Of a stretch of 64,000 bases of DNA, positions 1,520-59,607 are shown one piece after another. The notes beneath the pieces were generated by a model. The model had not been told where the DNA came from and did not search any database. It saw only the letters and a list, made by a program, of their open reading frames with translations. The stretch lies in the NCBI GenBank assembly GCA_009837885.1, contig VXSP01000015.1:14065-78064 (forward strand). Direction: 5' to 3'. The translations under genes and the position numbers were made by a program. The DNA comes from Holophagales bacterium. GTDB taxonomy: Bacteria > Acidobacteriota > Thermoanaerobaculia > Multivoradales > Multivoraceae. The first letter of the stretch is position 1. Each line of letters opens with the position of its first letter.

Positions 1520-1525
1520 CCTCGC

Positions 1526-1577
1526 CGCTTCGCGGCTTGGCCCGGATGCCGGCGGGGACGCCGGCGCACCCAGTGTG
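1526..1577 (+). repeat. REP-like hairpin repeat, copy 1 (left stem-loop degenerate)
   Basis: ...CCGGATGCCGGCGGGGACGCCGGCGCACCCAGTGTG. The stem TGCCGGCG and its complement CGCCGGCA flank the loop GGGA. It lies 6 bp downstream of the stop of the gene at 1584-3164. Confidence 0.8.
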
Positions 1578-1583
1578 ATTCGG

Positions 1584-17777: not shown

Positions 17778-19730
17778 CTAACCTGCCCCGGCCTGCAGTG
17801 TGGCGTACCTCCGGTATCGCCCGTCGGGTATCGCCATCAGCTCCTCGTGAGTTCCCCGTTCCTTGATCGCTCCTTCCTCGAGGAAGTAGATCCGGTCCGC
17901 GTTGGCGATCGTCGACAGGCGGTGGGCGATGATGATGACCAGCCTGTCCTTCGCCGCTTCGTGCAGGGCGTCGACCAGGTAGGCCTCGGTTTCCGGGTCG
18001 AGCGCGGAGGTCGGTTCGTCGAGGATCAGGATGCGCGCGTCGCGCAGGAGGCCCCGGGCGATCGCGATGCGCTGCTTCTGGCCGACGGACAGCTTGCTGG
18101 TCACGGTACCGAGGTTGGTCCGGTAGCCGTCGGGCAGGGCGGTGATGAAGTCGTGCGCGCCGGCGACGTGCGCGGCACGCTCGACTTGCGCCTCGGTCGC
18201 GTCCGTGTTCCCGTAGCGGATGTTCTCGAGGATCGAGTCGGAGAACAGTTGCGTCTCCTGGAAGACGTAGGAGACCTGATCGCGGAGGCTGTCGACCGAC
18301 ACGTCCTTCAGGTCGACGCCGTCGATCGTCACCGTACCTTCGGTGGGCTGCACGAAGGCCGGCACCATGTAGGCGAGGCTCGTCTTGCCCGCGCCGGTCG
18401 GGCCGACGAATGCGACGATCTCGCCCAGGCGGGCCTCGAGGTTGATGCCGCTCAGCGCCCGGCGTCCGTCGGGATACGTCAGCCCTACGTTCCTCATCTC
18501 GACGCCGCGGCTGATCCGGGGCAGCCCGACGCCTTCGCTCGTCTTCTCCGATGGCAGGTCCATCAGGAAGAACACCCGGCGCAGTCCGGCGATGTTGTCC
18601 TGCAGAACCGGGTAGATGAAGCCCATCCCGCTGAACGTCGCGCTCAGGACGAAGAAGTAGTAGTTGAGGACGAAGTAGTCGCCGGCCGTGAACGTGCCGT
18701 CGATCACGCGTCCGGCGATGACGACGAAGAACAGGACCTGGCTCAGCAGGAAGGCCAGGCTGCCGAATTGTTGGTAGGTCAGCTTGAGCAGCGACTCGAT
18801 GCGAAAGCGCCTGAAGGACTCCTCGCTGGCCTTCCTGAATCGCTGGCCTTCCCGCTCGTTTCCACCGAGGCTCTGCACGGCGAGCACGTTGCTCATGCCC
18901 TCTTCGATGTTCGCCGTCGTCGCGGCGCCCGAGGCGCGGCTGGCCTGGCTTCTGCGCCGTGCCATCCGCGCGAATGGACCGACGAAGATGAGCATGATCG
19001 GCAGCGACAGGGCGGCCAGCAGGATGACCTCTGGAGCGTCGCCGAAGTACGTGTACATCATCATTGCGCTGATCGTGATGCCGAGCGCGTGGGAGTAGAA
19101 CTCGAGGCCCACCTCGTAGAGAACGCGGCTGACACTCGTCGTGTCGTAGAGGACGCGGTAGATGCTGTCGCCGATCCGCTGGTCGTCCAGGGTCGTCATC
19201 GGCAGGCGCTTGATCCGCCCGGCGAGTTTCGTCCTGAGCAGGTGGTTCATCGACTGCGTCAGGCGCAGGTGCACCCGGAAGTCGAGGAGTCCGAGAATGC
19301 CGCCCATCAGGCCGGAGCCCCGGTTGGCCTCGTTCTCGGTCCGGGTGGCCGTGTCGTGCCCCTGGGCCAGGGTGCCGTGCCCCTGCTGGAGGAGGACGGT
19401 GGCGCCGCCCGACGAGGCCGCGGATGCTCCGGTGGGCATCCCGGTCGCGGACCTGACGGTGCCCCGGTTCGTCGTGAACCCGAACACGGTCACCATGAAG
19501 ACGCCGAGGACGAGTACCCACGCCATGATCTCCAGCGGGCTCCTGCCGGCCAGGAGCAGCACGAACGGGCTTAGGTATGAGGGGAACCCGGCCGCGTCCA
19601 CGATGGGCATGCCGAGGATGACGTGGTCGACGACGACCTTGCCCGGCCACGGCGCGACGAGCAGCCGGAACGCCATCTCCGCCGTCAGCAAACCGAACTT
19701 CGCGGCGACCCGCGCCTTGAAGAGGCGCAT
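17778..19730 (-). CDS. Fused ABC exporter (TMD plus NBD), inverted paralog of 12146-14245; the annotated ATG start truncates a conserved N-terminal region
   Basis: 650 aa from the ATG at 19728-19730. It has Walker A, signature and Walker B motifs. A further ~45 codons upstream (19731-19865) are conserved with the paralog N-terminus (LREGEKALDRSASALDTQTDIPFREVLRIFGRALAY versus LREHEKQLDRAASVLDLGTDIGFREVLRIFARVVSTF) but contain no ATG, GTG or TTG. Confidence 0.8.
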   Translation of the reverse strand: MRLFKARVAAKFGLLTAEMAFRLLVAPWPGKVVVDHVILGMPIVDAAGFPSYLSPFVLLLAGRSPLEIMAWVLVLGVFMVTVFGFTTNRGTVRSATGMPTGASAASSGGATVLLQQGHGTLAQGHDTATRTENEANRGSGLMGGILGLLDFRVHLRLTQSMNHLLRTKLAGRIKRLPMTTLDDQRIGDSIYRVLYDTTSVSRVLYEVGLEFYSHALGITISAMMMYTYFGDAPEVILLAALSLPIMLIFVGPFARMARRRSQASRASGAATTANIEEGMSNVLAVQSLGGNEREGQRFRKASEESFRRFRIESLLKLTYQQFGSLAFLLSQVLFFVVIAGRVIDGTFTAGDYFVLNYYFFVLSATFSGMGFIYPVLQDNIAGLRRVFFLMDLPSEKTSEGVGLPRISRGVEMRNVGLTYPDGRRALSGINLEARLGEIVAFVGPTGAGKTSLAYMVPAFVQPTEGTVTIDGVDLKDVSVDSLRDQVSYVFQETQLFSDSILENIRYGNTDATEAQVERAAHVAGAHDFITALPDGYRTNLGTVTSKLSVGQKQRIAIARGLLRDARILILDEPTSALDPETEAYLVDALHEAAKDRLVIIIAHRLSTIANADRIYFLEEGAIKERGTHEELMAIPDGRYRRYATLQAGAG

Positions 19731-19992
19731 GTAGGCGAGGGCACGCCCGAAGATGCGCAGGACTTCCCGGAACGGGATGTCGGTCTGTGTGTCGAGCGCG
19801 CTCGCCGAACGATCGAGCGCCTTCTCTCCCTCTCGGAGCCTTGCCCGCCAGGACTGCGGGCGGCGCGGGAGTCGCGGGGCGGCTGCCGGCTGCGTCAGAT
19901 CGACTCCGAGAGCAGTGCGCCGAGCAACAGGAGTGCGGTTTGCTGTCTCATGGTGTGCGTCCCGTGAGTCATTAGAGTTGCACGATTCCAGG

Positions 19993-21640: not shown

Positions 21641-22594
21641 ATGCGCAGCTTCCTCGCGCGCCGCCTGTTGCAGGCGGTGCCCGTTCTCCTCCTGGTCACG
21701 TTCCTGGTGTTCGCGCTGATGCTCGCGATTCCGGGCGACCCGGCGCGGGCGTTCATCGGGCCCGGCGAGGCGCTCGACGAAGAGCAGTTGCAGCTCATCC
21801 GCGAACGTCACCACCTGGACGAACCGGTGATCGTCCAGTACCTGATCTGGCTCGGCAACGTCCTCCAGGGCGACTTCGGCCGTTCGACCCAGAACATGCG
21901 CCCGGTGGCGGAGGAACTCGGCGGCCGGGCTCTGGTGACCCTGCAGTTCGGCCTCGCGGCCTGGATTCTCGCGGTGCTGGTCGGCGTGCCGGCCGGCATT
22001 GCATCGGCGGTCTATCGCGGCAAACCGATCGACTACGCGGCGACGGTGGTCTCGATCGGCGGGGTCGCCATCCCGAACTTCTGGCTCGGCATCATGGCGA
22101 TCCTGCTCTTCGGCGTGGGGCTCGGCTGGCTGCCGAGCCAGGGCTACGTGAGCCTCTTCGACGACCCGCTGCAGAGCCTGCGCCACATGGTCCTGCCGGC
22201 GTTCGCCCTCGGTGTCACGAGCTGCGCGCTGATCATGCGGCAGAGCCGCTCGGCCATGCTCGAGGTGCTTGCCCAGGACTACCTGCGTACCTCTCGTGCC
22301 CGGGGGTCGAGGGAGCGCACCGTGATCTGGTCGCATGCCCTGCGCAACGCGCTGCTGCCGGTCATCACGATTCTCGGCCTGCAGACGGGCCGCATCTTCG
22401 CCGGGGCGATCGTCATCGAGACGCTCTTCGGCATCCCCGGCACCGGCCAGTACATCGTGCAGGCGATCTTCGCCCGCGACTTCCTGGTCGTGCAGGCGGC
22501 GGTGCTGCTGATGGCGGTCGCCGTGCTCGCCGCGAATCTCGTCACCGACCTCGCCTGCGCCTGGCTCGACCCGAGGATCAAGTTCGGTGACTAG
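21641..22594 (+). CDS. ABC transporter permease (DppB/OppB-like)
   Basis: 317 aa, 6 TM. The N-terminus MRSFLARRLLQAVPVLLLVTFLVFALMLAIPGDP is typical, and the EAA-like loop is present (DYLRTSRARGSRERTVIW). Confidence 0.85.
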   Translation: MRSFLARRLLQAVPVLLLVTFLVFALMLAIPGDPARAFIGPGEALDEEQLQLIRERHHLDEPVIVQYLIWLGNVLQGDFGRSTQNMRPVAEELGGRALVTLQFGLAAWILAVLVGVPAGIASAVYRGKPIDYAATVVSIGGVAIPNFWLGIMAILLFGVGLGWLPSQGYVSLFDDPLQSLRHMVLPAFALGVTSCALIMRQSRSAMLEVLAQDYLRTSRARGSRERTVIWSHALRNALLPVITILGLQTGRIFAGAIVIETLFGIPGTGQYIVQAIFARDFLVVQAAVLLMAVAVLAANLVTDLACAWLDPRIKFGD

Positions 22595-23567
22595 GAATGT
22601 GCGCCGCAAGACCGGGTACGCCGCCGCCCCGGCCAACCGGGTGCTGTCGATTGGGTGCGCCGGCGTCCCCGCCGGCATCCGGCGCGAAGCGCCGGCCTCT
22701 GGAGGCGCTGCTCCGCCCAGCCACCCGACCCTCGAGCTGCTGCGCAAGCTCGCCTCTGTGCCCCAGGCGCTGGCCGGCCTCGTCGTGCTGGCGCTGATCG
22801 CCGCGGCGGCGGTGCTGGCGCCCTGGATCGTCCCCGTCGACGCCGAGGAGATGGACTTCGACAACCTGCTCTCGGGCCCGAGCGCCGCGCACTGGCTCGG
22901 CTCGGACCAGATGGGCCGCGACACGCTGGCCCGGCTGATCGTCGGCGCGCGGATCGCGCTGTCCGTCAGCCTTGGCGCCGTCGGCCTCGGCGTGTTGCTG
23001 GGAGTGCCTCTCGGCCTGCTGTCGGTCTACTTCCGCGGCCGCGTCGACGACGTGCTGATGCGGCTCATGGACGCGCTGGTCACGTTCCCCAGCCTGCTGA
23101 TCGCGGTCGGTCTGGCCGCCGCCCTCGGCGGCTCGCTCCGCACCGTGATCATCGCCATCGGCATCGCGAACGTGCCGTGGATGGCCAGGATCGTTCGCAG
23201 CCAGGGGCTCTCCATCCGCGAGCGGGACTTCGTCAAGGCCGCGGAGTCGCTCGGCCTCAGCCACCCGCGCATCATCCTGCGCCACATCCTGCCCAACTGC
23301 ATCGCCCCGGTCATCGTCCAGAGCACCCTCAGCATGGGCTACGCGGTGCTGACCGAAGCCGCCCTCGGCTTCGTCGGCGTCGGCATCCAGCCGCCCACGC
23401 CGACCTGGGGCAACATGCTCCAGCAGGCCTTCCCGATGCTCGAGCAGCAGCCGCTGCTTTCGATCGTCCCGGGCGTGGCGATCTTCCTGCTGGTGCTGTC
23501 GTTCAACTGCGTGGGGGACGCGCTGCGGGATCTGCTGGATCCGCGGCTGCGGGGGGTGATTCACTAA
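22587..23567 (+). CDS. ABC transporter permease (DppC/OppC-like); its 5' region contains a REP copy, so the true start may be the GTG near 22758
   Basis: 326 aa. A GTG start overlaps the dppB-like stop. The conserved core begins at ~LELLRKLASVPQALAGLVVLALIAAAAVLAPWIVPVD, and the EAA loop is FVKAAESLGLSHPRIILRHILPN. Residues 20-40 (GCAGVPAGIRREAPASGG) are encoded by a reverse-oriented REP. Confidence 0.8.
   Translation: MTRNVRRKTGYAAAPANRVLSIGCAGVPAGIRREAPASGGAAPPSHPTLELLRKLASVPQALAGLVVLALIAAAAVLAPWIVPVDAEEMDFDNLLSGPSAAHWLGSDQMGRDTLARLIVGARIALSVSLGAVGLGVLLGVPLGLLSVYFRGRVDDVLMRLMDALVTFPSLLIAVGLAAALGGSLRTVIIAIGIANVPWMARIVRSQGLSIRERDFVKAAESLGLSHPRIILRHILPNCIAPVIVQSTLSMGYAVLTEAALGFVGVGIQPPTPTWGNMLQQAFPMLEQQPLLSIVPGVAIFLLVLSFNCVGDALRDLLDPRLRGVIH
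22653..22706 (-). repeat. REP-like double-hairpin repeat (full-length copy, reverse orientation) inside the tracked dppC-like ORF
   Basis: The reverse complement reads GGCCGGCGCTTCGCGCCGGATGCCGGCGGGGACGCCGGCGCACCCAAT, with both stem-loops (CCGGCGC-TTC-GCGCCGG and TGCCGGCG-GGGA-CGCCGGCA). Confidence 0.8.
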
Positions 23568-23569
23568 CC

Positions 23570-23917
23570 ATGACCGAGACCGTGACGATTCCGAAGGCCG
23601 AGTATCAACGATTGTCTGCCGTCGAGGAAGATCACGCCGACATCCGGGCCGTGCTCGCCGTGCAGGCGAGAGTGGACGCCGGGACCGAGGAGCTCGTGCC
23701 CGCCGCGATGGTCAGCCGTCTGATCGATGGCGAGTCGCCGTTACGGGTCTGGCGCGAGTACCGTGGCCTCTCGCAGGCCGCTCTGGCCCGCACAGCTGAT
23801 ACGAGTCGTGTCCAGATCGTTGACATCGAAGCCGGTCGCCGAACTGGCTCCGTGCGCACGCTTCGCCGGCTCGCTGACGCCCTCGGTGTCGGCTTGGACG
23901 ACGTCGTTCCAGGCTAG
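23570..23917 (+). CDS. HTH-XRE family antitoxin-like protein (C-terminal helix-turn-helix), copy 1
   Basis: 115 aa. ESPLRVWREYRGLSQAALARTADTSRVQIVDIEAGRR is an XRE-type HTH. The start is 2 bp after the dppC-like stop. It is ~70% identical to 24934-25245. No toxin partner is recognisable. Confidence 0.65.
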   Translation: MTETVTIPKAEYQRLSAVEEDHADIRAVLAVQARVDAGTEELVPAAMVSRLIDGESPLRVWREYRGLSQAALARTADTSRVQIVDIEAGRRTGSVRTLRRLADALGVGLDDVVPG

Positions 23918-24933: not shown

Positions 24934-25245
24934 GTGAAGGCGCTCCGCAACGTGGCGGAGTTCGAGGAGGATCAGGCCGCGCTCGCCGTTCAGGCGCGAA
25001 TCGACGGCGGAATCGAGGAGTTCGTGCCCGGGACGGTCGTCAGCCGGCTAGTCGACGGCGAGTCTCCGCTGCGCGTCTGGCGCGAGTACCGTGGTCTCTC
25101 GCAGGCCGCCCTGGCTCGCGCCGCGAGCACGAGCCGTGCCCAGATCGTTGACATTGAGGCGGGGCGTCGAACCGTCAGCGCCCACACGCTCCGCCGGCTT
25201 GCTGGTGCTCTGGGTATAGAGCCGGACGACATCGTTTCGGGCTGA
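24934..25245 (+). CDS. HTH-XRE family antitoxin-like protein, copy 2 (paralog of 23570-23917)
   Basis: 103 aa. ESPLRVWREYRGLSQAALARAASTSRAQIVDIEAGRR is nearly identical in its HTH core to copy 1. Confidence 0.65.
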   Translation: MKALRNVAEFEEDQAALAVQARIDGGIEEFVPGTVVSRLVDGESPLRVWREYRGLSQAALARAASTSRAQIVDIEAGRRTVSAHTLRRLAGALGIEPDDIVSG

Positions 25246-26396: not shown

Positions 26397-26430
26397 CAGA
26401 GCCGGCGGGGACGCCGGCGCACCCAGTCTG
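26397..26430 (+). repeat. REP-like repeat, partial copy (right stem-loop only)
   Basis: AGCCGGCGGGGACGCCGGCGCACCCAGTCTG, lying between the sulfatase stop and the RHH gene start. Confidence 0.75.
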
Positions 26431-26458
26431 GACAGTCGAGGTTCTCCGGCGGAGATTC

Positions 26459-27832: not shown

Positions 27833-27850
27833 GGGGTGGTTCCTGGACTT

Positions 27851-27901
27851 CCGGAATTCCGCTGTCCGGATGCCGGCGGGGGCGCCGGCGCACCCAGTGT
27901 G
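27851..27901 (+). repeat. REP-like repeat (variant left arm)
   Basis: CCGGAATTCCGCTGTCCGGATGCCGGCGGGGGCGCCGGCGCACCCAGTGTG, in the divergent spacer between the sulfatase and the DUF2911-like gene. Confidence 0.8.
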
Positions 27902-27978
27902 AGCTTCTACACGGACTACGGGTTTCCGTCTATCCTACGGTCGCGAGCGAACAGAACACTCTCTAGCTGGAGGACGAC

Positions 27979-33625: not shown

Positions 33626-33667
33626 GGGAACAGGTTAGGAGACTCGACGATCGCGGTAGAACGTCCG

Positions 33668-33719
33668 GAAGCCGGCGCTTCGCGCCGGATGCCGGCGGGG
33701 ACGCCGGCGCACCCAGTGT
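33668..33719 (+). repeat. REP-like double-hairpin repeat (full copy) abutting the DUF1501 stop codon
   Basis: GAAGCCGGCGCTTCGCGCCGGATGCCGGCGGGGACGCCGGCGCACCCAGTGTC. Its 3' end provides the complement of the TGA stop of the DUF1501 gene. Confidence 0.85.
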
Positions 33720-35146
33720 CAGACGATGATGTCGTCTACGACGATCCCCTCGACGTCGGTCAACCGGAAGTCGCGCCCCTGCGAGCGGTACGTCAACTGC
33801 TCGTGGTCGAGACCGAGCAGATGCAGGATCGTGGCGTGCAGGTCGTGGATGTGGACCTTGTCCTCGATCGCGTAGTAGCCGTAGTCGTCCGTCCGGCCGT
33901 GGCTGTGGCCGGGCTTCACGCCGCCGCCGGCCATGAACATCGTGTAGCCGTGGGGGTTGTGGTCGCGGCCGTTGCGGGCGCCGGCTTCGGCGCCGGGGGT
34001 CCGTCCGAACTCGCCGCCCCAGAGGACCAGGGTCTCGTCCAGCAGTCCCCGTGACTTCAGGTCCTTGATCAGGCCGGCCACCGGGCGGTCGACCTCGGCG
34101 CAACTCTGCGGCAGGCCGGTGATCAGGCCCGAGTGGTGGTCCCACTTCGTGTCCGGGCCGTGGGTCGCCTGCACGAAGCGCACGCCGGACTCCGAGAAGC
34201 GGCGGGCCAGCAGACAGCGGAGGCCGAAGTTGCGGGCCACCGGGTCGTCGAGTCCGTAGAGCCGCCTGGTCGCGTCGGACTCGCCCTCGATGCTCATCAG
34301 TTCGGGCGCCTCGGTCTGCATGCGGAAAGCGAGCTCGAACGACTCGATGCGGCCCTCGAGCGCCTGGTCGGGCCCGGTCTGCTCGAGCTGGCGGCGCTGC
34401 CAGCGCTGCAGCAGGTCGAGTTCGCTTCGCTGGACCTCCGGCGACACCGATTCGTTGTCGAGGAAGTCGATCGTCGCGTCCTCCGTCTTCATCCGGGTCG
34501 TGCCGATCGCCGTGCCGTTGTAGGCGGCGGGCAGGAAGGCGGACGAGTAGTTCTGGACGCCGCCGTGCTGGTACGAGGGGCAGATCGTGATGAAGCCGGG
34601 CAGGTTCTCGTTCTCGGTGCCCAATCCGTAGGCGATCCACGAGCCCATCGACGGTCGCACGAAGCGGTCGCTGCCCGTGTTCATCGCCAGGATGGCGCCG
34701 CCGTGGGCGGCGTTCGTGCCCCACATCGAGCGGATGAAGCAGAGATCGTCGACCACGGAGGCGATGTTGGGCAGAAGCTCGCTCACCCAGGCGCCCGACT
34801 GGCCGTGCTGCCTGAACTCCCAGGGGCTCTTGAACAGGTTGCCGGTCTCGTTGAACTGGACTCGCGGCTTGGCGAAGGGCAGCGGCTTGTTGTCGTCGCG
34901 AATGAGGAGCGGCTTGTACTCGAACAGGTCGTGCTGCGACGGCCCGCCGTGCATGTGCAGGAAGATGATCCGCTTGGCCTTCGGCGCGAAGTGCGGCGCC
35001 CTGGGCGCGAGCGGGTTCGTGGATGTCGCGGCCAGGAGGTCGCGCTGCAGCAGGGACGAGAGCGCCAGGCCGCCGAAGCCGCAGCCGCAGGTCTTCAGCA
35101 TCTGCCGGCGGGTCAGGGGTGGCGGCTGGTAGTGGGGGTAGCGCAT
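33719..35146 (-). CDS. DUF1501 family protein (sulfatase-like fold; partner of PSD1 proteins)
   Basis: 475 aa. A TAT-like signal is present (LTRRQMLKTCGCGFGGLALSSLL). The body is conserved DUF1501 (HMHGGPSQHDLFEYKP...WGGEFGRTP...DHNPHGYTMFMAGGG). It starts 23 bp after the PSD1 gene. Confidence 0.85.
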   Translation of the reverse strand: MRYPHYQPPPLTRRQMLKTCGCGFGGLALSSLLQRDLLAATSTNPLAPRAPHFAPKAKRIIFLHMHGGPSQHDLFEYKPLLIRDDNKPLPFAKPRVQFNETGNLFKSPWEFRQHGQSGAWVSELLPNIASVVDDLCFIRSMWGTNAAHGGAILAMNTGSDRFVRPSMGSWIAYGLGTENENLPGFITICPSYQHGGVQNYSSAFLPAAYNGTAIGTTRMKTEDATIDFLDNESVSPEVQRSELDLLQRWQRRQLEQTGPDQALEGRIESFELAFRMQTEAPELMSIEGESDATRRLYGLDDPVARNFGLRCLLARRFSESGVRFVQATHGPDTKWDHHSGLITGLPQSCAEVDRPVAGLIKDLKSRGLLDETLVLWGGEFGRTPGAEAGARNGRDHNPHGYTMFMAGGGVKPGHSHGRTDDYGYYAIEDKVHIHDLHATILHLLGLDHEQLTYRSQGRDFRLTDVEGIVVDDIIV

Positions 35147-35169: not shown

Positions 35170-38100
35170 CTAGTTGATGTAGATGAACTCGCTGGCCGCG
35201 AGGATGACGTGGGAGAGCCGGGTCCAGGCGTAGAGTTCGGCGTCCGCGGAGGCATGGTCGCCGCTTCGCGGCGCGTTCCCCTCGGAAGCCGGCGAGGACG
35301 CCGGCGCACCCAGTGTGCGGCCACCCAGTGTGCGGCCGCTTCCACGGGCGCACCCGGTGTCCGACGCGCAGCTCCGCATCTCGTCGAGGAAGGCGAGGCT
35401 GTCGGCGATCTCGATGTCGTCGGCCGGGCGCCCGTAGGCGCGGACGAAGGCGGTATCGATGCGATCCGCGGCGTCGGCGTCCTCGATCTCCAGAAGTTGC
35501 TTTGCGAAGCCGAGCGCCGCCTCCTGGACGAACGGGCTGTTCATCATCAGAAGCGCCTGCCGCGGCACGACCGTCTCGGATCGATCGCCGACCGAGTCGC
35601 TGGCGTCGCCGAAGTCGAAGCCGCCGAAGATCGGATAGACAGCGGTACGCACGATCGGCATGTAGATCGAACGCCGCGGCGCGTCGTAGATGTCGACCCG
35701 GTCGAGTGGGCCGTACTCGCCGAAGACGTATCCCCGGGCGTTGTACTCTTCCACCCGTCCACCGATCGTCAGGTCGAGCCGGCCGGCGAGCTGCAGCAGG
35801 GCGTCGCGAATCGGCTCGACCTCGAGGCGTCTCCGGTTGTTGCGCCAGAGGAGGCGGTTCTCCTCGTCGACGGCCGCGTTCGCCGCGTCGTAGTCGCTCG
35901 ACAACCGGTACGTGCTGGACAGCATGATGTCGCGGTGGAGCTTCTTGAGCGACCAGCCGCCCTCGACGAAGCGGCGTGTGAGCCAGTCGAGAAGCTCGGG
36001 ATGCGTGGGTTTGCTGCCGATCACGCCGAAGTTGCTCGGCGTGTCGACGATGCCGCGGCCGAAGTGCCAGTGCCAGACGCGGTTGACGATGACGCGCGCG
36101 GTGAGCGGGTGCTCGGGGTGGGTGATCCAGCGGGCGAGCTCGAGCCGTCCGCTCGTGTCGCCGGCGACTGGCGGCGGCGGCACCAGGTGGTCCGTGACCT
36201 TCAGGAAGCCGCGCGGCTCCGGTTCGTCGGCCAGGTTCAGGTGGCTGCCCCGGATGTGTACCGGCAGGTCGACGGCCGCGGTCTCGTCCACTGCCATGGC
36301 GTGGGGCGGCGCGGGGGGTGAGGCTTCCTCCAGGCGTTCGACTTCGGCGCGCAGCTCCGTGAGCTGCTCCAGGGCCTCCTGCGGGTAGAGCTTCTCCTCC
36401 TCTTCCTGGTCGAGGCAGAGGATGCAGAAGTAGCCGTCGTAGACCAGCCATCGCAGCTCCTCCTGCTCGCGCGGCAGCCTGAAGTCCGAGGGTGAGAGTT
36501 CGTCCTCGTCCTTGAGCCCGAGTCGCATGAGGTGCTCTTCCCAGGCGATCTCGATGGTCGCGAACAGGCTCGCGTACCGCCAGGCGACTTCCTCGAGCGT
36601 CTTCGGCGCCGGCCCGCGGACTAGGCTCCGGGTCAGAGGCGCCGTCAGCACCTTCTCCGAGGCGATGATCGCCCGCAGCTCCTCGGTCACCTGTTCGTAG
36701 CGATCAGGAGAGGCGGCGGCGTAGGCGTTCCAGATCACGAAGACGGTGCTCGGGCTCGGGGCGTCCCCTTCGACCGGCGGGCCCTCCCGGTACCGGTAGA
36801 AGGCCCTGACCCAGCGTTCAAGAACGGCCGGCTCCAGCCCCCTGTTCCCGGCGACGCGGGCGATGGCGAGCGAGCCCGCCGAAGGGGGCTTGGCTGCCCC
36901 AGCGTCCCCATGGGGAGACGAGCCCTCGGATGCGCGTGCTCGTACCGCCTCGTCGTTGCTCCAGCTCGGGTAGGCCTCCTCCGCGGCGAGCAGGTACTCG
37001 GCGAGGGCCGCGCGGCGGGGGCCACGCAGGACGTCGTTCTGCTCGCGGACCACCCCGTCGACCTTCTCCTGCGCCTCGGCGACCAGCCTCTGCGCCGCCT
37101 CGTACGCGGCGATCTCGTCTTCCGGGGCCAGTGGCCGCTCCAACCAGCGCATGCCGGCGGCGTCGCTCATCGTCTCGGTCGAGCGCAGGATGCCGGCCAT
37201 CGCGTAGTAGTCGGCGGTGGGGATCGGATCGAACTTGTGGTCGTGGCAGCGGGCGCAGCCGACCGGCAGGGCGAGAAAGGCGCGGCCCAGGGTGTTGACC
37301 TGCTCGTCGACGATGTCGATCAGCATCTTGTCGACGTCCTGCTCGGCGAGCACCTTGGGGCCCAGCATCAGAAAGCCGGTGGCGGTGATCTGCTCGAAGC
37401 GCTGCGCGTCGGTCTCCGCCGGCATCAGATCGCCGGCGATCTGCTCGCGGACGAAGCGGTTGAAGGGCTTGTCGCGGTTCAGGGAATCGACGACGTAGTC
37501 GCGGTAGCGGAAGGCGTTGGGGAACGCGATGTTCTCGTCCAGGCCGTTCGAGTCGGCGTAGCGGGCGACGTCGAGCCAGTGGCGGCCCCAGCGTTCGCCG
37601 TAGTGGGGCGATGCGAGCAGCCGATCGACGACCTTCGCGAAGGCATCCGGGCTCTCGTCGGCGAGGAAGTCCTCGATCTCCGCTTCCGACGGGGCCAGGC
37701 CGATCAGATCGAAGGTCGCGCGTCTCAGCAGCGTGCGCTTGTCGGCTGGCGCCACCGGCGCGAGGCCGCGTTCCTCGAGGCGCGAGAGGATGAAGCGATC
37801 GAGGTCACGGCTGACCCAGGCCTCGTTCTCGACTTCGGGCAGCGCGGGGTCTTCGACCCGCCGGAAGGCCCAGTGCTCGCGGCCCGGGCCGTAGTCGAAC
37901 GCCTCGGCGGCTCTCGTGGCGACCACCGTCTGCTCCCCGCCGGTACGCGGGTCGGGCGCGCCGCGGCGGATCCACTGCTCGAAGTCGGCGATGACGTGCG
38001 CCGCCAGCTTGCCGTCCGGCGGCATCTGGGTGAGGCCTTCGTAGTGGAGCGCCTCGATCATCAGGCTGTCCTCGGGCGACCCCGGGACGATCACGGCGCC

Positions 38101-38319
38101 GCTGTCGCCGCCGGCGCGCACGCCTTCCGCGTCGAGCAGGATCAGCCCGCCGCGGATCTTCGCGGGATCGCCGCCGTGACACTGGTAACAGCGCTCAGCC
38201 AGGACCGGCCGGATCTTCGACTCGAAGAACTCGAGGTCGGCGGGATCGATCTCCGACGCGCCGGCGACCGTTCCGACCGCCGCCAGCCAGGCTAGTAGGA
38301 AGGGCGCAGCGCGGATCAT
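35170..38319 (-). CDS. PSD1-type protein: Planctomycete cytochrome C (PSCyt1) plus DUF1549 and DUF1553 domains
   Basis: 1049 aa with a signal peptide. The haem site is CYQCHGG...GGLILLD...PGSPEDSLM (PSCyt1), and the DUF1553-type C-terminus ends ...AASEFIYIN. The C-terminal region contains an in-frame REP-derived insert (GRTLGGRTLGAPASSPASEG). Confidence 0.85.
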   Translation of the reverse strand: MIRAAPFLLAWLAAVGTVAGASEIDPADLEFFESKIRPVLAERCYQCHGGDPAKIRGGLILLDAEGVRAGGDSGAVIVPGSPEDSLMIEALHYEGLTQMPPDGKLAAHVIADFEQWIRRGAPDPRTGGEQTVVATRAAEAFDYGPGREHWAFRRVEDPALPEVENEAWVSRDLDRFILSRLEERGLAPVAPADKRTLLRRATFDLIGLAPSEAEIEDFLADESPDAFAKVVDRLLASPHYGERWGRHWLDVARYADSNGLDENIAFPNAFRYRDYVVDSLNRDKPFNRFVREQIAGDLMPAETDAQRFEQITATGFLMLGPKVLAEQDVDKMLIDIVDEQVNTLGRAFLALPVGCARCHDHKFDPIPTADYYAMAGILRSTETMSDAAGMRWLERPLAPEDEIAAYEAAQRLVAEAQEKVDGVVREQNDVLRGPRRAALAEYLLAAEEAYPSWSNDEAVRARASEGSSPHGDAGAAKPPSAGSLAIARVAGNRGLEPAVLERWVRAFYRYREGPPVEGDAPSPSTVFVIWNAYAAASPDRYEQVTEELRAIIASEKVLTAPLTRSLVRGPAPKTLEEVAWRYASLFATIEIAWEEHLMRLGLKDEDELSPSDFRLPREQEELRWLVYDGYFCILCLDQEEEEKLYPQEALEQLTELRAEVERLEEASPPAPPHAMAVDETAAVDLPVHIRGSHLNLADEPEPRGFLKVTDHLVPPPPVAGDTSGRLELARWITHPEHPLTARVIVNRVWHWHFGRGIVDTPSNFGVIGSKPTHPELLDWLTRRFVEGGWSLKKLHRDIMLSSTYRLSSDYDAANAAVDEENRLLWRNNRRRLEVEPIRDALLQLAGRLDLTIGGRVEEYNARGYVFGEYGPLDRVDIYDAPRRSIYMPIVRTAVYPIFGGFDFGDASDSVGDRSETVVPRQALLMMNSPFVQEAALGFAKQLLEIEDADAADRIDTAFVRAYGRPADDIEIADSLAFLDEMRSCASDTGCARGSGRTLGGRTLGAPASSPASEGNAPRSGDHASADAELYAWTRLSHVILAASEFIYIN
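35285..35340 (+). repeat. REP-like repeat with tandem duplication of its 3' arm, located in frame inside the PSD1 coding sequence
   Basis: GAAGCCGGCGAGGACGCCGGCGCACCCAGTGTGCGGCCACCCAGTGTGCGGCC. Translated on the minus strand within the PSD1 ORF it gives ...GRTLGGRTLGAPASSPAS... about 60 codons before the natural stop. Confidence 0.75.
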
Positions 38320-38370: not shown

Positions 38371-38440
38371 GGTGCCGCTGCGGGATCTCGAGGCTCCACA
38401 CTGGGTGCGCCGGCGTCCCCGCCGGCTGCCGCCGGAGGCG
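38371..38440 (-). repeat. REP-like repeat (reverse orientation, with a partial second copy)
   Basis: CACACTGGGTGCGCCGGCGTCCCCGCCGGCTGCCGCCGG is the reverse complement of the core, and it is preceded by the degenerate half-copy CTGGGTGCCGCTG. It lies between the sulfatase stop (38488) and the PSD1 start (38319). Confidence 0.75.
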
Positions 38441-38487
38441 GCTTTGAAACGCGCCGGCCGTCAGGCCGGCTCCGCTTCGCGCCGCCC

Positions 38488-44747: not shown

Positions 44748-44778
44748 GACCGGGCCGGGCGGACCAGGCAGAGGTCCA

Positions 44779-44843
44779 GAAGCCGGTGCTTCGCGCCGGA
44801 TGCCGGCGGGGACGCCGGCGCACCCAGTGTGGGATGCCGGCGG
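44779..44843 (+). repeat. REP-like double-hairpin repeat (full copy plus partial tandem reiteration)
   Basis: AGAAGCCGGTGCTTCGCGCCGGATGCCGGCGGGGACGCCGGCGCACCCAGTGTG followed by GGATGCCGGCGG. It lies between two convergent genes. Confidence 0.85.
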
Positions 44844-46220: not shown

Positions 46221-46280
46221 GGGGTTCTCCTTGGGCGGGTAGGACGCCTTGGTTGGGGCGAGTCTAGCGGCAGAGCGACC

Positions 46281-46400
46281 GGAGCCGGCGCTGCGCGCCG
46301 GATGCCGGCGGGAACCCGTGTGGCGCGGGCCCGCGCCACACGCGTCACAGTCCGTGCGCCCGTCATCGGGCGCACGGATGACACGCCGGCGCACCCAGTC
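46281..46400 (+). repeat. Composite REP-like element: a REP copy whose loop carries a ~70-bp insert with two further perfect palindromes
   Basis: GGAGCCGGCGCTGCGCGCCGGATGCCGGCGGG, then the insert AACCCGTGTGGCGCGGGCCCGCGCCACACGCGTCACAGTCCGTGCGCCCGTCATCGGGCGCACGGATGACA, then CGCCGGCGCACCCAGTCTG. The insert contains the palindromes GTGTGGCGCGGGCCCGCGCCACAC and TCCGTGCGCCC-GTCAT-CGGGCGCACGGA. Confidence 0.8.
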
Positions 46401-46415
46401 TGAGCGCGTGCCTCT

Positions 46416-48896: not shown

Positions 48897-49537
48897 GCCT
48901 GGAGCAGCTCAAACGGGACTTCGACCGGGACGGCTACGTCGTCCTGCGCGGTTTTCTTTCGCCCGGGGAGCTCGAAGAGCTGCGCGCGCGCGCCGAAGGA
49001 TGTCTTGGCGAGGCCGAGAAAGGCGAGGCGTACCCCGGCGTCGTCAAGAACCTGAACAGGGTGGATCCGTGGTTCGAGGACCAGCTCCAGCGCGGCAGGC
49101 AGAGGGAGCTGATCTCCGCGCTGCTGGAGGACGACCTCGAACCCGCGACGGCCGCCTGGTTCGCCCGGCTTCCTGGAGAGACATCGGGGATCAGGCCGCA
49201 TCTCGATGCGGTCGGGCACCGCCAGAAGGGCGCGACGATCTGGATCGCCCTCGATCGGGCGGACCGGGAGAACGGTTGCCTCTACTACGCGAGGGGCACC
49301 CACCGGCAGGAGCTGCCGAGTGTTGTCGGCCTGGAGGGCTTCAGCGCCGAGTCCGAGGAGGCGGTGGCGGTCGAGGTCGAGCCGGGCGACGCCACGATTC
49401 ACAGCTCGCTCACGGTGCACTGGTCGGAAGCGAACCGCAGCCAGCGGCCGAGGGAGGCCATCTCGTACTTCTACTGGGCGGCTTCGGACGAAGGCGAGAC
49501 GGCGGACCCAGAGACTCTTGAGAGGGGGGAGCGATGA
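48893..49537 (+). CDS. Phytanoyl-CoA dioxygenase (PhyH) family Fe(II)/2-oxoglutarate-dependent oxygenase
   Basis: 214 aa. The start overlaps the GPH stop by 4 bp. The HxD...H facial triad candidates are PHLDAVGH and TIHSSLTVHW, and the N-terminus DGYVVLRGFLSPGELEEL is typical of PhyH. Confidence 0.7.
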   Translation: MSLEQLKRDFDRDGYVVLRGFLSPGELEELRARAEGCLGEAEKGEAYPGVVKNLNRVDPWFEDQLQRGRQRELISALLEDDLEPATAAWFARLPGETSGIRPHLDAVGHRQKGATIWIALDRADRENGCLYYARGTHRQELPSVVGLEGFSAESEEAVAVEVEPGDATIHSSLTVHWSEANRSQRPREAISYFYWAASDEGETADPETLERGER

Positions 49538-49588
49538 GCGAACTGAGGAAGTGCCACGCTGGCGGACTCCGGACGAGGTCTTACTCCC

Positions 49589-49640
49589 GCAGGCCGGCGC
49601 TTTGCGCCGGATGCCGGCGGATGACACGCCGGCGCACCCG
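49589..49640 (+). repeat. REP-like repeat variant (loop ATGACA) overlapping the start of the downstream serine hydrolase gene
   Basis: GCAGGCCGGCGCTTTGCGCCGGATGCCGGCGGATGACACGCCGGCGCACCCGGTGG. The ATG in the loop is the inferred start codon of the 49621-50880 gene. Confidence 0.75.
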
Positions 49641-50880
49641 GTGGCTTGCGGCTTGCGTGGTGGCAGTGGCCGCGACGCCGCTTCCTGCTCAGGAGATTCC
49701 AGTGGCGGCCCCGGAAGACGTCGGCATGTCGAGCGAGCGTCTGCTGGAGATCGACGCCGTCATCAAACGGCACATCGACGCGGGCGAGATCCAGGGGGCG
49801 GTCACGGCCGTGGCGCGGCGCGGGAAGGTCGTCCACTTCGAGGCGTACGGCCTGTTGGACGTCGAGCGGGCCCGGCCGATGGAGAAGGATGCCATCTTCC
49901 GCATGGCCTCCTCGTCGAAGCCGGTGCTCGGGGTCGCAGCGATGATGATGATCGAGGAGGGTCTCTTCGATCCGGCCGACGAGGTCGCGAAGTACCTGCC
50001 TGAGTTCAGCGACATGCAGGTCGCCGTGCTCAAGGAGCCGGCGGACAGGGACGTCATTCCCGCGTTCGTGGCGCCGGGCGAGACGCCGGCGCACCGCCTG
50101 GTGCCGGCGGAGCGCCCGATCACGATTCACGACCTGCTGACCCACACCGCTGGCTTGGGCAGCTACGGACTGGGCACGGCGGTCGCGAAGCTCCCGAACG
50201 TCGGCCCGGACGACACCCTTGCGAGCCGCGTGCCGCTGTACGCCCGCATGCCGCTCGACTTTCAACCGGGCTCGCGGTGGGGCTACAGCCCGCGCATCGG
50301 ACACGACGTGGTAGCCCGCATCATCGAGATCGTCTCGGGCGTGTCCTACGACGACTTCCTTCGCCGGCGGATCTTCAGGCCGCTCGGCATGACCGATACC
50401 CACTTCTTCCTGCCGCCGGAGAAGGAGTCCAGACGGGTCGTGATCCAGGGTCTCGATGCCAAGTCGAAGGGGTGGGACAAGCCGAGCCGCTATGCCTCGG
50501 CTTCCGGCGGACTCTCCAGCACCGCTGAGGACTTTCTTCGTTTCGAGCAGATGCTGGCCGGCGGCGGCGCCCTGTTCGGGAACCGTCTGCTGAGCCCGGA
50601 GTCGGTCGCCCTGATGTCGAGCAACCAGGTTGGTGGGCTCTACGGACAGGGAGGCAAGCAGCCCGGCTCAGGATTCGGCTACGCCGTCTCCGTCGTGCTC
50701 GACCCGGTGGCCGCGAGGAGCGCGCGCGGCAAGGGCGCCTTTGGTTGGGGCGGTGCGTTCGGAACCGTGTCCTGGACCGACCCGGCGAACGAGATCACGG
50801 CCGTCCTGATGGTTCAGCAGGGCAGCAAGGGCGTGTCAGCCGGTTTCGAGAACGCCATCAAGGCCGCGATCGTCGACTGA
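49621..50880 (+). CDS. Beta-lactamase-family serine hydrolase (class C / penicillin-binding protein-like)
   Basis: The start is at M30 of the tracked ORF. Signal peptide MTRRRTRWLAACVVAVAATPLPAQ. The SxxK nucleophile motif is MASSSKPV, followed by the YSPR (YxN-like) block and a later GWGG. Confidence 0.8.
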   Translation: MTRRRTRWLAACVVAVAATPLPAQEIPVAAPEDVGMSSERLLEIDAVIKRHIDAGEIQGAVTAVARRGKVVHFEAYGLLDVERARPMEKDAIFRMASSSKPVLGVAAMMMIEEGLFDPADEVAKYLPEFSDMQVAVLKEPADRDVIPAFVAPGETPAHRLVPAERPITIHDLLTHTAGLGSYGLGTAVAKLPNVGPDDTLASRVPLYARMPLDFQPGSRWGYSPRIGHDVVARIIEIVSGVSYDDFLRRRIFRPLGMTDTHFFLPPEKESRRVVIQGLDAKSKGWDKPSRYASASGGLSSTAEDFLRFEQMLAGGGALFGNRLLSPESVALMSSNQVGGLYGQGGKQPGSGFGYAVSVVLDPVAARSARGKGAFGWGGAFGTVSWTDPANEITAVLMVQQGSKGVSAGFENAIKAAIVD

Positions 50881-57966: not shown

Positions 57967-59607
57967 TCAGTCGCCGGCGCGCTGGAAGCGGACGGGCGAG
58001 ACGGACGGCTCGAGCGGAACGGCCACGACGTTGATCTTCCCGTCGTTGCCGTAGTCGAAGCGGACCTTGGCGCCGCCGCGTCCGGCCGCGGGCGCACTGG
58101 CCGGCAGGTCGTACGGGACCATCCACACGTCGTAGTGGTAGTGCCGGAGGGGGAACTCGATGCCCGCGACCTTAAGGACCAGGCCGTCCCCGTCCGTCCT
58201 CACGGTTGCCTTGCCGTAGCCCTCGTGCTCGTACTCGCCGGCGTGGTCGGCGAGCGGGTGGGAGGGACTCGTGTCCGCCACCGCGGCCGCGAGGTCCTTC
58301 TTCTTGGCCTCCTCGGCCTTCTCCTCCGCTTCCGCGATCTGCTTGCGGGCCCGCTCAGCCCAGTCGATCGGCTCGAGACCGAGCATGCGGTCGAACGCAT
58401 TGCGAACGACGAGCGCCGGCACCGTTCCGGAGTGCGACGTGTTGGACAGCGCGACGACGCCGATCTTCTCGTCGGGCAGCCACTCCATCGCCGAGATGAA
58501 GCCGTCGATGCCGCCGCCGTGGCTGATGTGCTTGTGCCCTCGGTACGTGCTCACCATGAGGCCCAGCCCGTAGGTGGGGTCGCCGATCTCCGGGCCGTTC
58601 TGCAGGCGCGCCTGGAGCGGGCCGGTCAGCACCATCTGGGGTAGCTGCATGAGCCTGGCCGAGGCTTCCTTCAGGATCTGCTCGTCGCCGACCTTGCCGT
58701 AGGCGAGATGGAACCGGACGTAGGCGGCGAGGTCGCGGGCCGACATGTTGATCGATCCTGCCGGTCCGATCGCGTCGATGTTGCGGAACGGCACCCGCTC
58801 GATCTCCTCGTCCGCGCCGTAGCCGTAGGAGAAGTCCTCGTCCTCCTGCATCTGGATCACCGAGAAGGTGGCCCGCTCGATGCCGAGCGGAGTGAGGACG
58901 CGCTCCTGGACGAGTTCCTCCCACGACTTGCCGCCGATCCGCTCGGAGACGATGCCGGCGGTCATGAACATCAGGTTCTGGTACTGGTACCTGCTTCTGA
59001 AGGAGGCGGAGGGCTCCAGGTGGTGAAGCCCCGCCAGCAGCTCTGAGCGGTTCCTGCCCGTGGCGTACCAGTACAGGTCGTGACGGGGCAGGCCCGAGCG
59101 GTGGCTCAGCAGGTCGACGGCGGTCATCTCGTCCGTCGCCGCCGGATCGTGGAGCCGGAACTCGGGCAGCACCGTCCGGATCGGATCGTCCCAGGCGAGG
59201 GCGCCGTCGTCCACCTGCATCGCCAGCAGGGTGGCGGTGAACGACTTCGTGTTCGAGCCGATGGCGAAGAGCGTGTCGGGAGTCACGGGCAGCTCTTCTT
59301 CGACGTTGCGCCAGCCGTAGCCCTTGGCGAACACGGTCTTGCCGTCCTCGACGATCGCCACGCCCAGGCCCGGCACCTTCCACTCCTGCATGATCGACTC
59401 GACCCACGGGTCGAAGCCGTCGAGCCGCTCGTCGACGGTTTGGGCGGAGAGGGATGCGGCTGCGAGGGCGAGGGCGGCGAAGAGCAGCGCTTGCGTAGCA
59501 AGGAGCCGCCGGCCTGTGGCCGGCGCGTTTCTTTGGCCGCCTGCGGCGGCGGCCGGCGGGGACGCCGGCGCACCCAGCGTGGGACGGATGTGCTGTAGGT
59601 GCCTCAT
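57967..59607 (-). CDS. Beta-lactamase-family serine hydrolase (D-Ala-D-Ala carboxypeptidase/esterase-like) with a C-terminal DUF3471 lipocalin-like domain
   Basis: 546 aa. The SxxK nucleophile motif is GSNTKSF, with YQYQN (YxN) and HGGG (KTG-equivalent). The C-terminal ~120 aa form a beta-rich domain. N-terminal residues 9-20 (PTLGAPASPPAA) are encoded by a REP. Confidence 0.85.
   Translation of the reverse strand: MRHLQHIRPTLGAPASPPAAAAGGQRNAPATGRRLLATQALLFAALALAAASLSAQTVDERLDGFDPWVESIMQEWKVPGLGVAIVEDGKTVFAKGYGWRNVEEELPVTPDTLFAIGSNTKSFTATLLAMQVDDGALAWDDPIRTVLPEFRLHDPAATDEMTAVDLLSHRSGLPRHDLYWYATGRNRSELLAGLHHLEPSASFRSRYQYQNLMFMTAGIVSERIGGKSWEELVQERVLTPLGIERATFSVIQMQEDEDFSYGYGADEEIERVPFRNIDAIGPAGSINMSARDLAAYVRFHLAYGKVGDEQILKEASARLMQLPQMVLTGPLQARLQNGPEIGDPTYGLGLMVSTYRGHKHISHGGGIDGFISAMEWLPDEKIGVVALSNTSHSGTVPALVVRNAFDRMLGLEPIDWAERARKQIAEAEEKAEEAKKKDLAAAVADTSPSHPLADHAGEYEHEGYGKATVRTDGDGLVLKVAGIEFPLRHYHYDVWMVPYDLPASAPAAGRGGAKVRFDYGNDGKINVVAVPLEPSVSPVRFQRAGD
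59560..59601 (+). repeat. REP-like repeat (partial left arm) inside the 5' coding end of the 57967-59607 gene
   Basis: GGCGGCGGCCGGCGGGGACGCCGGCGCACCCAGCGTG, located 6-40 nt downstream of the inferred ATG (minus strand). Confidence 0.75.

Follow-up and report, generated by a model that had tools for sequence, protein, structure and literature searches.

In-frame copies of a GC-rich palindromic repeat in four genes of a Thermoanaerobaculia (Acidobacteriota) genome

Four genes that carry the repeat in frame

The DNA analyzed here (the window) is a 64,000-nucleotide (nt) stretch of contig VXSP01000015.1 (assembly GCA_009837885.1) of a Holophagales bacterium and has a GC content of 67%. A short GC-rich palindromic repeat is dispersed through the window: nine copies of its 25-nt core, GCCGGCGGGGACGCCGGCGCACCCA, were found at one mismatch or fewer where shuffled sequences gave an expectation of zero, and inclusion of variant copies brought the total to 11 elements. 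Four of these lie within open reading frames (ORFs), namely those of a dppC/oppC-like ATP-binding cassette (ABC) permease, a PSCyt1/PSCyt2/PSD1 protein, a secreted serine hydrolase of the beta-lactamase family and a beta-lactamase/DUF3471 serine hydrolase (Table 1). The original prediction, made from the sequence alone, held that four repetitive extragenic palindromic (REP) copies overlap ORFs without breaking the frame, and all four peptides were found where it had quoted them. Alignment with syntenic orthologs having empty sites (~90-96% DNA identity) showed all four to be clean in-frame insertions, as expected from the proposed likeness to Rickettsia palindromic elements (RPEs). The added segments are 25-37 residues long (~12-18 had been anticipated). 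The inserted DNA matches intergenic copies of the repeat at 90-100% over 31-52 nt. Related loci are designated below by L and orthologous proteins by P, each followed by a number.

Table 1 Genes, inserts and repeat copies in the window (window coordinates)
Feature	Position	Strand	Remarks
dppC/oppC-like ABC permease gene	22587-23567	+	Pfam OppC_N at residues 52-98, BPD_transp_1 at 137-322
dppC insert	22595-22702	-	108 nt, 36 codons, directly after the dppB stop/dppC start overlap GTGACTAG; edges +/- a few nt
PSCyt1/PSCyt2/PSD1 (DUF1549/DUF1553) gene	35170-38319	-	Pfam assignment; hosts insert at about residues 986-1024
PSD1 insert	35250-35360	coordinates on +, gene read from -	111 nt, 37 codons; from alignment with empty and filled alleles
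Repeat-encoded PSD1 peptide segment (example)			GRTLGAPASSPASEGNAPR
Secreted beta-lactamase-family serine hydrolase gene	49534-50880	+	Pfam assignment; ancestral ATG (49534) and the stop of the PhyH-like gene upstream overlap as ATGA
Serine hydrolase repeat copy	49585-49641	+	Loop GATGACA; within the N-terminal coding region
Beta-lactamase/DUF3471 serine hydrolase gene	57967-59607	-	ATG at 59607-59605 overlaps the dipeptidase stop (ATGA)
Beta-lactamase/DUF3471 insert	59497-59589	+	~84-93 nt after codon 6-7; edges approximate
Intergenic repeat copy	1520-1578	+	Fills nearly the whole 64-nt spacer between two convergent stop codons
Intergenic repeat copy	26401-26431	+	27 nt 3' of the stop codon of a minus-strand gene
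Intergenic repeat copy	27844-27902	+	~10 nt before a minus-strand gene's ATG (~27833); site empty in L002
Intergenic repeat copy	33663-33721	+	Tail GTGTCA overlaps the TGA stop of a DUF1501 gene (TGA is the TCA of the tail)
Intergenic repeat copy	38392-38442	-	Between sulfatase stop and PSD1 start; within a ~140-nt block absent from L002
Intergenic repeat copy	44774-44832	+	Convergent genes on either side; within a ~115-nt block absent from L001 and L002
Composite intergenic copy	46276-46403	+	Core-hairpin loop enlarged by ~75 nt; GATGACA loop variant at right end
Terminal sequence of repeat elements			CACACTGGGTGCGCCGGC

A 'Holophagales bacterium' metagenome-assembled genome (MAG) has a protein that matches the PSD1 protein of the window at 100% identity. 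The PSD1 insert is composed of a subterminal hairpin (GCCGC-TTCG-GCGGC), a core hairpin (GCCGGCG-AGGA-CGCCGGC), a tail (GCACCCAGTGTG) and a further tail-like piece, and lies after the Pfam PSD1 match (residues 724-977) and before the conserved C-terminal helix (...YAWTRLSHVILAASEFIYIN). Among 33 aligned orthologs this helix (...YAWTRLxHVILAASEFIYIN) is kept downstream of the repeat peptide. In the 993-residue orthologs ...DEMRSLA joins PADEAEIY directly, with no insert; the insert is 22 residues long in the 1015-residue forms and 37 residues long in the window protein. Residues 995-1012 read GRTLGGRTLGAPASSPAS, and the peptide duplication noticed there mirrors a tandem duplication in the DNA, two copies of the 15-nt ACCCAGTGTGCGGCC in the insert tail (35307-35336), of which L002 has one; two of the 33 orthologs have two TLGAPAPPP units. 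The DNA alignment comprised three empty and three filled alleles. The 111-nt insert was missing from L001, L123 and L125, L124 had a double version, and the insert of L002 was only 66 nt, lacking both the 15-nt tandem duplication and the 30-nt subterminal hairpin. An imperfect 9-bp direct repeat surrounds the window insert (35238-35246 and 35354-35362, CGGACGCCG and CGGACACCG in gene sense), a possible target-site duplication; one related copy (GACACCG) is found in the empty allele L125, and CAGAC is present in both copies of L002. Precise excision was considered as the origin of the empty alleles and judged unlikely, given that they retain the outgroup-like ...A-P-A/D... junction, although the tree discussed below leaves some room for it.

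The structure of the PSD1 protein with its insert was predicted by AlphaFold2 (mean predicted local distance difference test score, pLDDT, of 78.7). In the model the insert is coil at pLDDT 27-37 with no secondary structure, residues 991-1018 all score below 50, and confident helices (968-986 and 1019-1041) bracket the insert, which is thereby predicted to be a disordered loop. A search of 1.84 billion representative proteins with the 41-residue insert peptide, a short and low-complexity query, gave no hits at E <= 0.001. The ratio of nonsynonymous to synonymous substitution rates (dN/dS) of the PSD1 gene was 0.12-0.18 against filled and empty orthologs.

The three other inserts are N-terminal. 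That of dppC is read from the opposite strand of the repeat, as had been predicted: the recognizable repeat within the insert (22652-22703) is in minus orientation and encodes residues 23-39 of the ORF, with GCAGVPAGIRREAPAS at residues 23-38, all within the tail ahead of the first transmembrane helix. The syntenic locus L002 has no repeat; there the dppB stop and a GTG start overlap in GTGACTAG, and VTSLAASPSHPTVELLRKLAS opens the protein. This GTGACTAG junction is found in the window too, where it is followed by the 108-nt insert, after which the protein continues ...PPSHPTLELLRKLAS. Of the six substitutions between the window and L002 in the stretch just 3' of the repeat, five are synonymous third-position changes, and hence this stretch is coding. 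A start-codon map gave no canonical starts between codons 19 and 58, and codon 58 is inside the OppC_N match. As the first canonical start after the repeat is within this domain, the repeat would be read as a pre-transmembrane tail. The dN/dS of dppC was 0.10.

The beta-lactamase/DUF3471 gene likewise has the predicted repeat peptide at its N-terminus, PTLGAPASPPAAAAGG forming residues 9-24 of the ORF; the repeat itself (59524-59582) has plus orientation, the gene reading it from the minus strand. The repeat-free loci used for comparison were L005 (syntenic), L004 and L006, and both L005 (~94-96% DNA identity) and L004 have the same ATGA overlap and start codon. Insert-free orthologs begin MRHLRIQLATVALAL..., MNHSRT... 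or similar, and the window protein begins MRHLQHI-[PTLGAPASPPAAAAGGQRNAPATG]-RRLLATQALLFAALALAAASLSAQ. The first ATG is the sole canonical start before codon 73. The insert falls in the n-region of the signal peptide and presumably is cleaved off. The dN/dS of this gene was 0.20.

In the secreted serine hydrolase gene the net insert is ~75 nt relative to orthologs that start with MSE, and follows about six codons. The GATGACA loop of the repeat puts an in-frame ATG at 49621-49623 (codon 30, MTRRRTRW...), which the original prediction took to supply the start codon. The ATG is indeed present, but its role as a start is only possible, the ancestral ATG (49534) being upstream and in frame. Because the same loop variant is found in the intergenic copy at 46376, the loop was not shaped for this gene. 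All orthologs have a signal peptide, M(SE)MKRSLGNALLALFAT...ALPA|QEIP, and this insert too falls in the n-region and presumably is cleaved off. Among relatives L119 is empty, and the repeat of L122 shares the orientation of the window copy. The repeat has the opposite orientation in L121, where it encodes WVRRRPRRHPARSAG, and also in L120, where a different frame gives PPTLGAPASPPAS and a new ATG follows downstream. These differing orientations and frames indicate at least three independent insertions within the first ~10 codons. The dN/dS of the gene was 0.22. Three close orthologs of 392 residues (P0266, P0272 and P0276) are annotated from MAAPEDVGMSSERL and lack the signal peptide; a repeat insertion or another change may have disrupted their N-termini. 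A second repeat-like stretch inside the gene (50060-50095, GACGCCGGCGCACC) was rejected as a copy. It is PGETPxHRLVPA coding sequence conserved in all orthologs and the resemblance is due to chance.

The repeat family and its copies elsewhere

A consensus built from 210 copies in the window and in related loci gave the conserved block CGGAW-GCCGGCG-GGGA-CGCCGGC-GCACCCAGTG(TG), a stem of 7 bp with a 4-nt loop and a conserved flank, to the left of which is a second, variable GC-rich hairpin. The predicted folding energy is about -34 kcal/mol for 59 nt, and none of the four coding copies has lost its hairpins. When the conserved block was read directly, all six frames proved free of stop codons. 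The exact core was present in at least 112 stretches of GTDB genomes, all Acidobacteriota, with taxon labels of Thermoanaerobaculia, Holophagales or Candidatus Multivorans. Complete chromosomes with the repeat include OZ244786, OY762911 and OZ220688. Several of the MAG bin names appear to point to sponge metagenomes. A search on 'Candidatus Multivorans' found no papers in the literature covered, and an Rfam scan of the whole window at the gathering threshold gave no family match.

In the broad sense the element is a REP: a short GC-rich imperfect palindrome in many dispersed and mostly extragenic copies, more than 200 being found in ~1 Mb of related loci with about 90% outside coding sequence. 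Its siting is also typical of REPs, between convergent or unidirectional genes and near 3' ends. By a hand tabulation confined to the window, 10 of the 11 copies are within 50 nt downstream of a stop codon or, in the case of PSD1, ~90 nt upstream of one, and only one copy lies between divergent genes. At 1520-1586 and 33719-33721 the repeat tails adjoin or provide stop codons.

Larger structures are built from the same core. In related loci 16 inverted (minus/plus) pairs were found at spacings of 81-127 nt, most of them 105-127 nt, and these are doublets of the REPIN type, able to form one long hairpin; 7 plus/minus pairs (17-53 nt spacing) and 24 direct pairs were also present. Composite palindromic elements of ~165-185 bp have the repeat core (~33 nt) as both inverted termini (~30 bp), CACACTGGGTGCGCCGGCGTCCCCGCCGGC..., and the PSD1 insert corresponds to the right half of such an element. 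Given the core as the inverted termini of composites, the family behaves like selfish DNA such as REPs and REPINs or miniature transposable elements with inverted repeats (MITEs). Composites were seen in L012, L013 (e.g. 5660-5838), L061, L067, L091, L100, L105 and L112; their interiors contain conserved hairpins (GAGGCCGAAGGCCTC, GCGAGGCCTGCGGCCTCGC and GTCGCCACCGCTCCGCGGCGTCGCC) and are found in both orientations. The added loop DNA of the window copy at 46276-46403, a site empty in L001 and L002, holds two perfect or near-perfect palindromes, GTGTGGCGCGGGCCCGCGCCACAC and CCGTGCGCCCGTCATCGGGCGCACGG, which suggests that other palindromic modules nested into the loop. Six-frame ORFs of the ~1 Mb of loci contained no motif (HxH ... 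YxxNP[VLIA][RK]) of REP-associated tyrosine transposases (RAYTs) or IS200/IS605-like Y1 transposases. The ORFs within the repeat clusters of L012 and L067 were considered as autonomous partners and rejected, as they are ordinary genes. Junctions other than that of PSD1 showed no consistent target-site duplication or target motif; they are ambiguous, since even their nearest empty sites differ by 5-10% and the inserted blocks are mosaic.

The window has other repeated sequences. A 269-nt direct repeat of 78% identity (23647-23915 and 24975-25243) is found just 3' of the dppC-like gene, and an ORF overlapping its first copy ends in a helix-turn-helix-like sequence and may be a duplicated small regulator or antitoxin gene. 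A WD40-repeat protein gene (14214-15266) consists of 7-8 tandem 126-nt (42-residue) units with 63-75% mutual identity; it accounts for the repeat family D1 and is ordinary. There is also a 2-kb inverted duplication of 79% identity (12181-14232 and 17788-19839), the left arm of which is an ABC exporter (ORF 12146-14245). The arms, ~3.5 kb apart, resemble paralogous transporter genes in opposite orientation.

Start codons, translation and tolerance

We consider the four coding copies to be frame-preserving insertions of the repeat that are translated as low-complexity segments of 25-37 residues and tolerated because of where they lie, and we give this reading a probability of about 0.8. Across the four host genes dN/dS was 0.10-0.22, and thus the genes are under purifying selection. 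In the N-terminal cases the ancestral start is upstream and the repeat is followed by no usable canonical start, which makes translation of the repeat very probable. In the serine hydrolase gene it would be translated whichever ATG serves as the start.

The route to such insertions would be straightforward. Copies of the repeat would build up within tens of nt downstream of stop codons by a site preference that the window tabulation suggests, and the genome is compact, with many adjacent genes overlapping (ATGA, GTGA...TAG). Because the genes overlap, a site just past the upstream stop is already within the first codons of the next gene, and as the repeat has no stop codon in six frames any insertion of a multiple of three leaves the host ORF whole. 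Insertions that break the frame presumably would be purged by selection, the four copies being survivors at sites that seem tolerant: a disordered loop in PSD1, two signal-peptide n-regions that presumably are cleaved, and a permease tail preceding the first transmembrane helix. The three fused N-terminal cases are exactly those in which the ancestral genes overlap, and where there is a spacer, as between the sulfatase and PSD1 genes, the repeat occupies the spacer. We infer neutral tolerance of the inserts. Such a passive course is the most economical; functional recruitment is possible and is required by no result.

The alternative that survives best is that the starts of the three N-terminal cases are mis-called, the repeat being 5' untranslated or intergenic sequence with the real start downstream and the open frame an accident. 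An element open in six frames extends ORFs easily, and the copy at 27844-27902 is exactly such a case in that an ORF runs open through the repeat, yet the repeat is untranslated. Moreover, Di Nocera et al. 2013 (PMC3733652) judged most N-terminal REPs of Pseudomonas and other species to be annotation artefacts. A codon log-likelihood classifier trained on window genes (97% sensitivity and 3% false positives for 50-codon windows) was applied to 214 repeat copies in the ~1 Mb of related genomes. Open frames toward the downstream gene were found for 49 copies, 38 of which have a plausible start just downstream and are ordinary 5' regions, as the alternative would have it. The other 11 lack any start over at least 18 codons, and what follows the repeat looks like coding sequence. 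In at least eight of these 11 a same-strand gene upstream stops 16-114 nt ahead of the core, and an in-frame start adjoins that stop. In these further N-terminal cases the repeat peptide mostly leads directly into the hydrophobic core of a signal or lipoprotein signal peptide.

Genuine internal in-frame inserts numbered five among the 214 copies. Among them are those in PSD1, in a GT2 domain, in an ABC exporter, where the linker joining its membrane and ATPase parts is affected, and in an interdomain region of a polyketide synthase (PKS); Pfam matches are on both flanks or span the insert. A candidate in L052 was a false positive, the antisense frame of the orthologous dppC insert. RPE-like in-frame insertion into functional genes extends to the four window genes plus at least four in related loci, supported by orthologs with empty sites and by dN/dS well below 1.

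Within the window, several observations speak against mis-called starts. The upstream start that overlaps the preceding stop is also the one used by repeat-free orthologs, and all three inserts preserve its frame. Neither dppC nor the beta-lactamase/DUF3471 gene has a canonical start between the repeat and conserved coding sequence, contrary to the downstream starts that the original prediction had allowed for: the next canonical start of dppC (codon 58) is within OppC_N, past the coding-like segment, and any start after the first ATG of the beta-lactamase/DUF3471 gene would lose the signal peptide common to all orthologs. The serine hydrolase gene, with an ATG within its repeat and, in L120, an ATG downstream, offers the alternative more scope. 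On the sequences compared, mis-calling appears contradicted for dppC and the beta-lactamase/DUF3471 gene and would be immaterial for the serine hydrolase, and we regard it as unlikely overall.

A second alternative is exaptation, in which the repeat peptides or the RNA hairpins have been recruited to provide positively charged n-regions or new starts, or to regulate translational coupling or mRNA stability where genes of an operon join. The serine hydrolase N-terminus, having received independent insertions in at least three configurations, would fit such recruitment, as would the many copies elsewhere that directly precede the hydrophobic core of a signal or lipoprotein signal peptide, but passive tolerance of a cleaved segment would produce enrichment at signal peptides just as well. 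Two of the six frames are arginine-rich (WVRRRPRR and SRRGRRRTQW), yet all six, encoding very different peptides, occur fused to proteins. The inserts are kept across species that differ by 8-16% in protein sequence and their hairpins remain intact in all four coding copies, although close relatives fare well without inserts and the PSD1 insert is predicted to be disordered. As for new starts, the ATG-bearing loop is a variant of a repeat subfamily and is intergenic as well. Exaptation therefore seems to us very unlikely. That the segments are ancestral low-complexity sequence or parts of decaying pseudogenes, with a secondary resemblance to the repeat, is hardly credible: Ala/Pro/Gly-rich linkers of low complexity are common in GC-rich genomes and the stretch at 50060-50095 did prove to be ancestral coding sequence, but the filled and empty site alignments contradict this view, since orthologs without the peptides exist both in the outgroup and among many ingroup members, the inserted DNA is the repeat itself with the match to intergenic copies given above, and the dN/dS values speak against pseudogenes.

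Several points weigh against insertion with translation and tolerance. The start codons are read from sequence, and in both dppC and the beta-lactamase/DUF3471 gene the repeat has non-canonical starts (CTG, ATT and ATC) downstream of it. In the serine hydrolase there is an ATG inside the repeat, and the ATG downstream of the repeat in L120 could start a normal signal peptide. Very stable hairpins near start codons might impair expression, tolerance being assumed. The edges of the inserts are fuzzy, and the intergenic filled sites are mosaics of 115-150 nt rather than a single sharply bounded unit. Finally, filled and empty PSD1 alleles interleave on a neighbor-joining tree that does not fix the number of events (insertion, loss or recombination), which implies several gains, losses or recombination events at one site. 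Among the orthologs P0001-P0027, the empty P0013 is beside the filled P0002 and the empty P0015 is beside the double-filled P0010.

Relation to known elements and significance

In-frame insertion of small palindromic repeats is known from the RPEs, from the GTAG/CGTC REPs and from elements like the enterobacterial repetitive intergenic consensus (ERIC) sequences (PMC10969869, PMC3733652). As summarized in these two sources, RPEs (Ogata et al. 2000/2002) are palindromic selfish repeats found in frame in unrelated genes. The likeness is in the peptide segments added at positions compatible with the fold and, in that summary, in hosts that are host-associated bacteria. RPE-1 is there described as AT-rich, ~100-150 bp in length and encoding one conserved peptide in a preferred frame, whereas the window repeat has a ~33-nt core, is extremely GC-rich and is read in six frames. 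There is no sequence similarity between the two; most coding copies of the window family lie at the ends of genes, above all in the first codons that follow an overlapping stop/start; and the phylum is Acidobacteriota, the exact core being found only in Thermoanaerobaculia MAGs.

The GTAG/CGTC-tagged REPs (Di Nocera et al. 2013, PMC3733652) have their largest numbers of intragenic copies in Opitutus terrae and R. conorii. They too are short stem-loops that lie mainly between unidirectional or convergent genes and often adjoin or supply stop codons, and a minority are contained wholly in ORFs, in linkers or at the N- or C-terminus. They differ in the tags. In the window family the unpaired flank is GCACCCAGTG (reverse CACTGGGTGC) with CGGAW on the other side, and neither tag is in the 210-copy consensus. 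They differ also in that N-terminal cases were there mostly attributed to annotation errors, whereas here empty sites place the ancestral start upstream of the repeat.

REPINs, the RAYT-mobilized doublets of Bertels and Rainey (in the context of PMC8049555), resemble the window family in having spaced inverted doublets, larger hairpins and single copies that look like remnants. By comparison, the window family has no RAYT-like gene in the ~1 Mb of loci, spacers (mostly 105-127 nt) with hairpin modules of their own, and direct tandem arrangements as common as inverted ones. The mycobacterial interspersed repetitive units (MIRUs), reportedly described by Supply and co-workers in 1997, are short repeats at operon gene junctions with frames joined to the flanking stop and start codons. 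MIRUs encode separate mini-ORFs between genes, whereas the window repeat is fused into the downstream protein. Intragenic ERIC and other enterobacterial small mobile sequences (Delihas 2007, as cited in PMC10969869) are non-autonomous, have open frames and sometimes extend host proteins; they differ in sequence, size and taxon, and relative to what that citation conveys the filled/empty-site evidence is stronger for the window family. As far as the literature examined shows, neither the element family nor its presence in this phylum has an earlier description.

One may go further and propose that the family recurrently remodels protein N-termini by preferential insertion at overlapping stop/start junctions in operons, there becoming a piece of the downstream protein, often as the n-region of a signal peptide or lipoprotein signal, and possibly under selection. 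The arginine-rich frames fit an n-region role and the loop of one subfamily has an ATG. We think this extension doubtful; if true, selfish DNA would be a recurrent source of new coding sequence that tunes export or translational coupling.

For the annotation of these MAGs, repeat-bearing N-terminal extensions should neither be trimmed nor trusted automatically. The natural pairs of alleles with and without inserts provide material on how much extra sequence signal peptides and loops can absorb. The N-terminal inserts have a simple structural reason in overlapping genes and an element without a stop codon in any frame. In-frame protein-coding palindromes would thus not be peculiar to Rickettsia but are found also in Thermoanaerobaculia (Acidobacteriota) MAGs.

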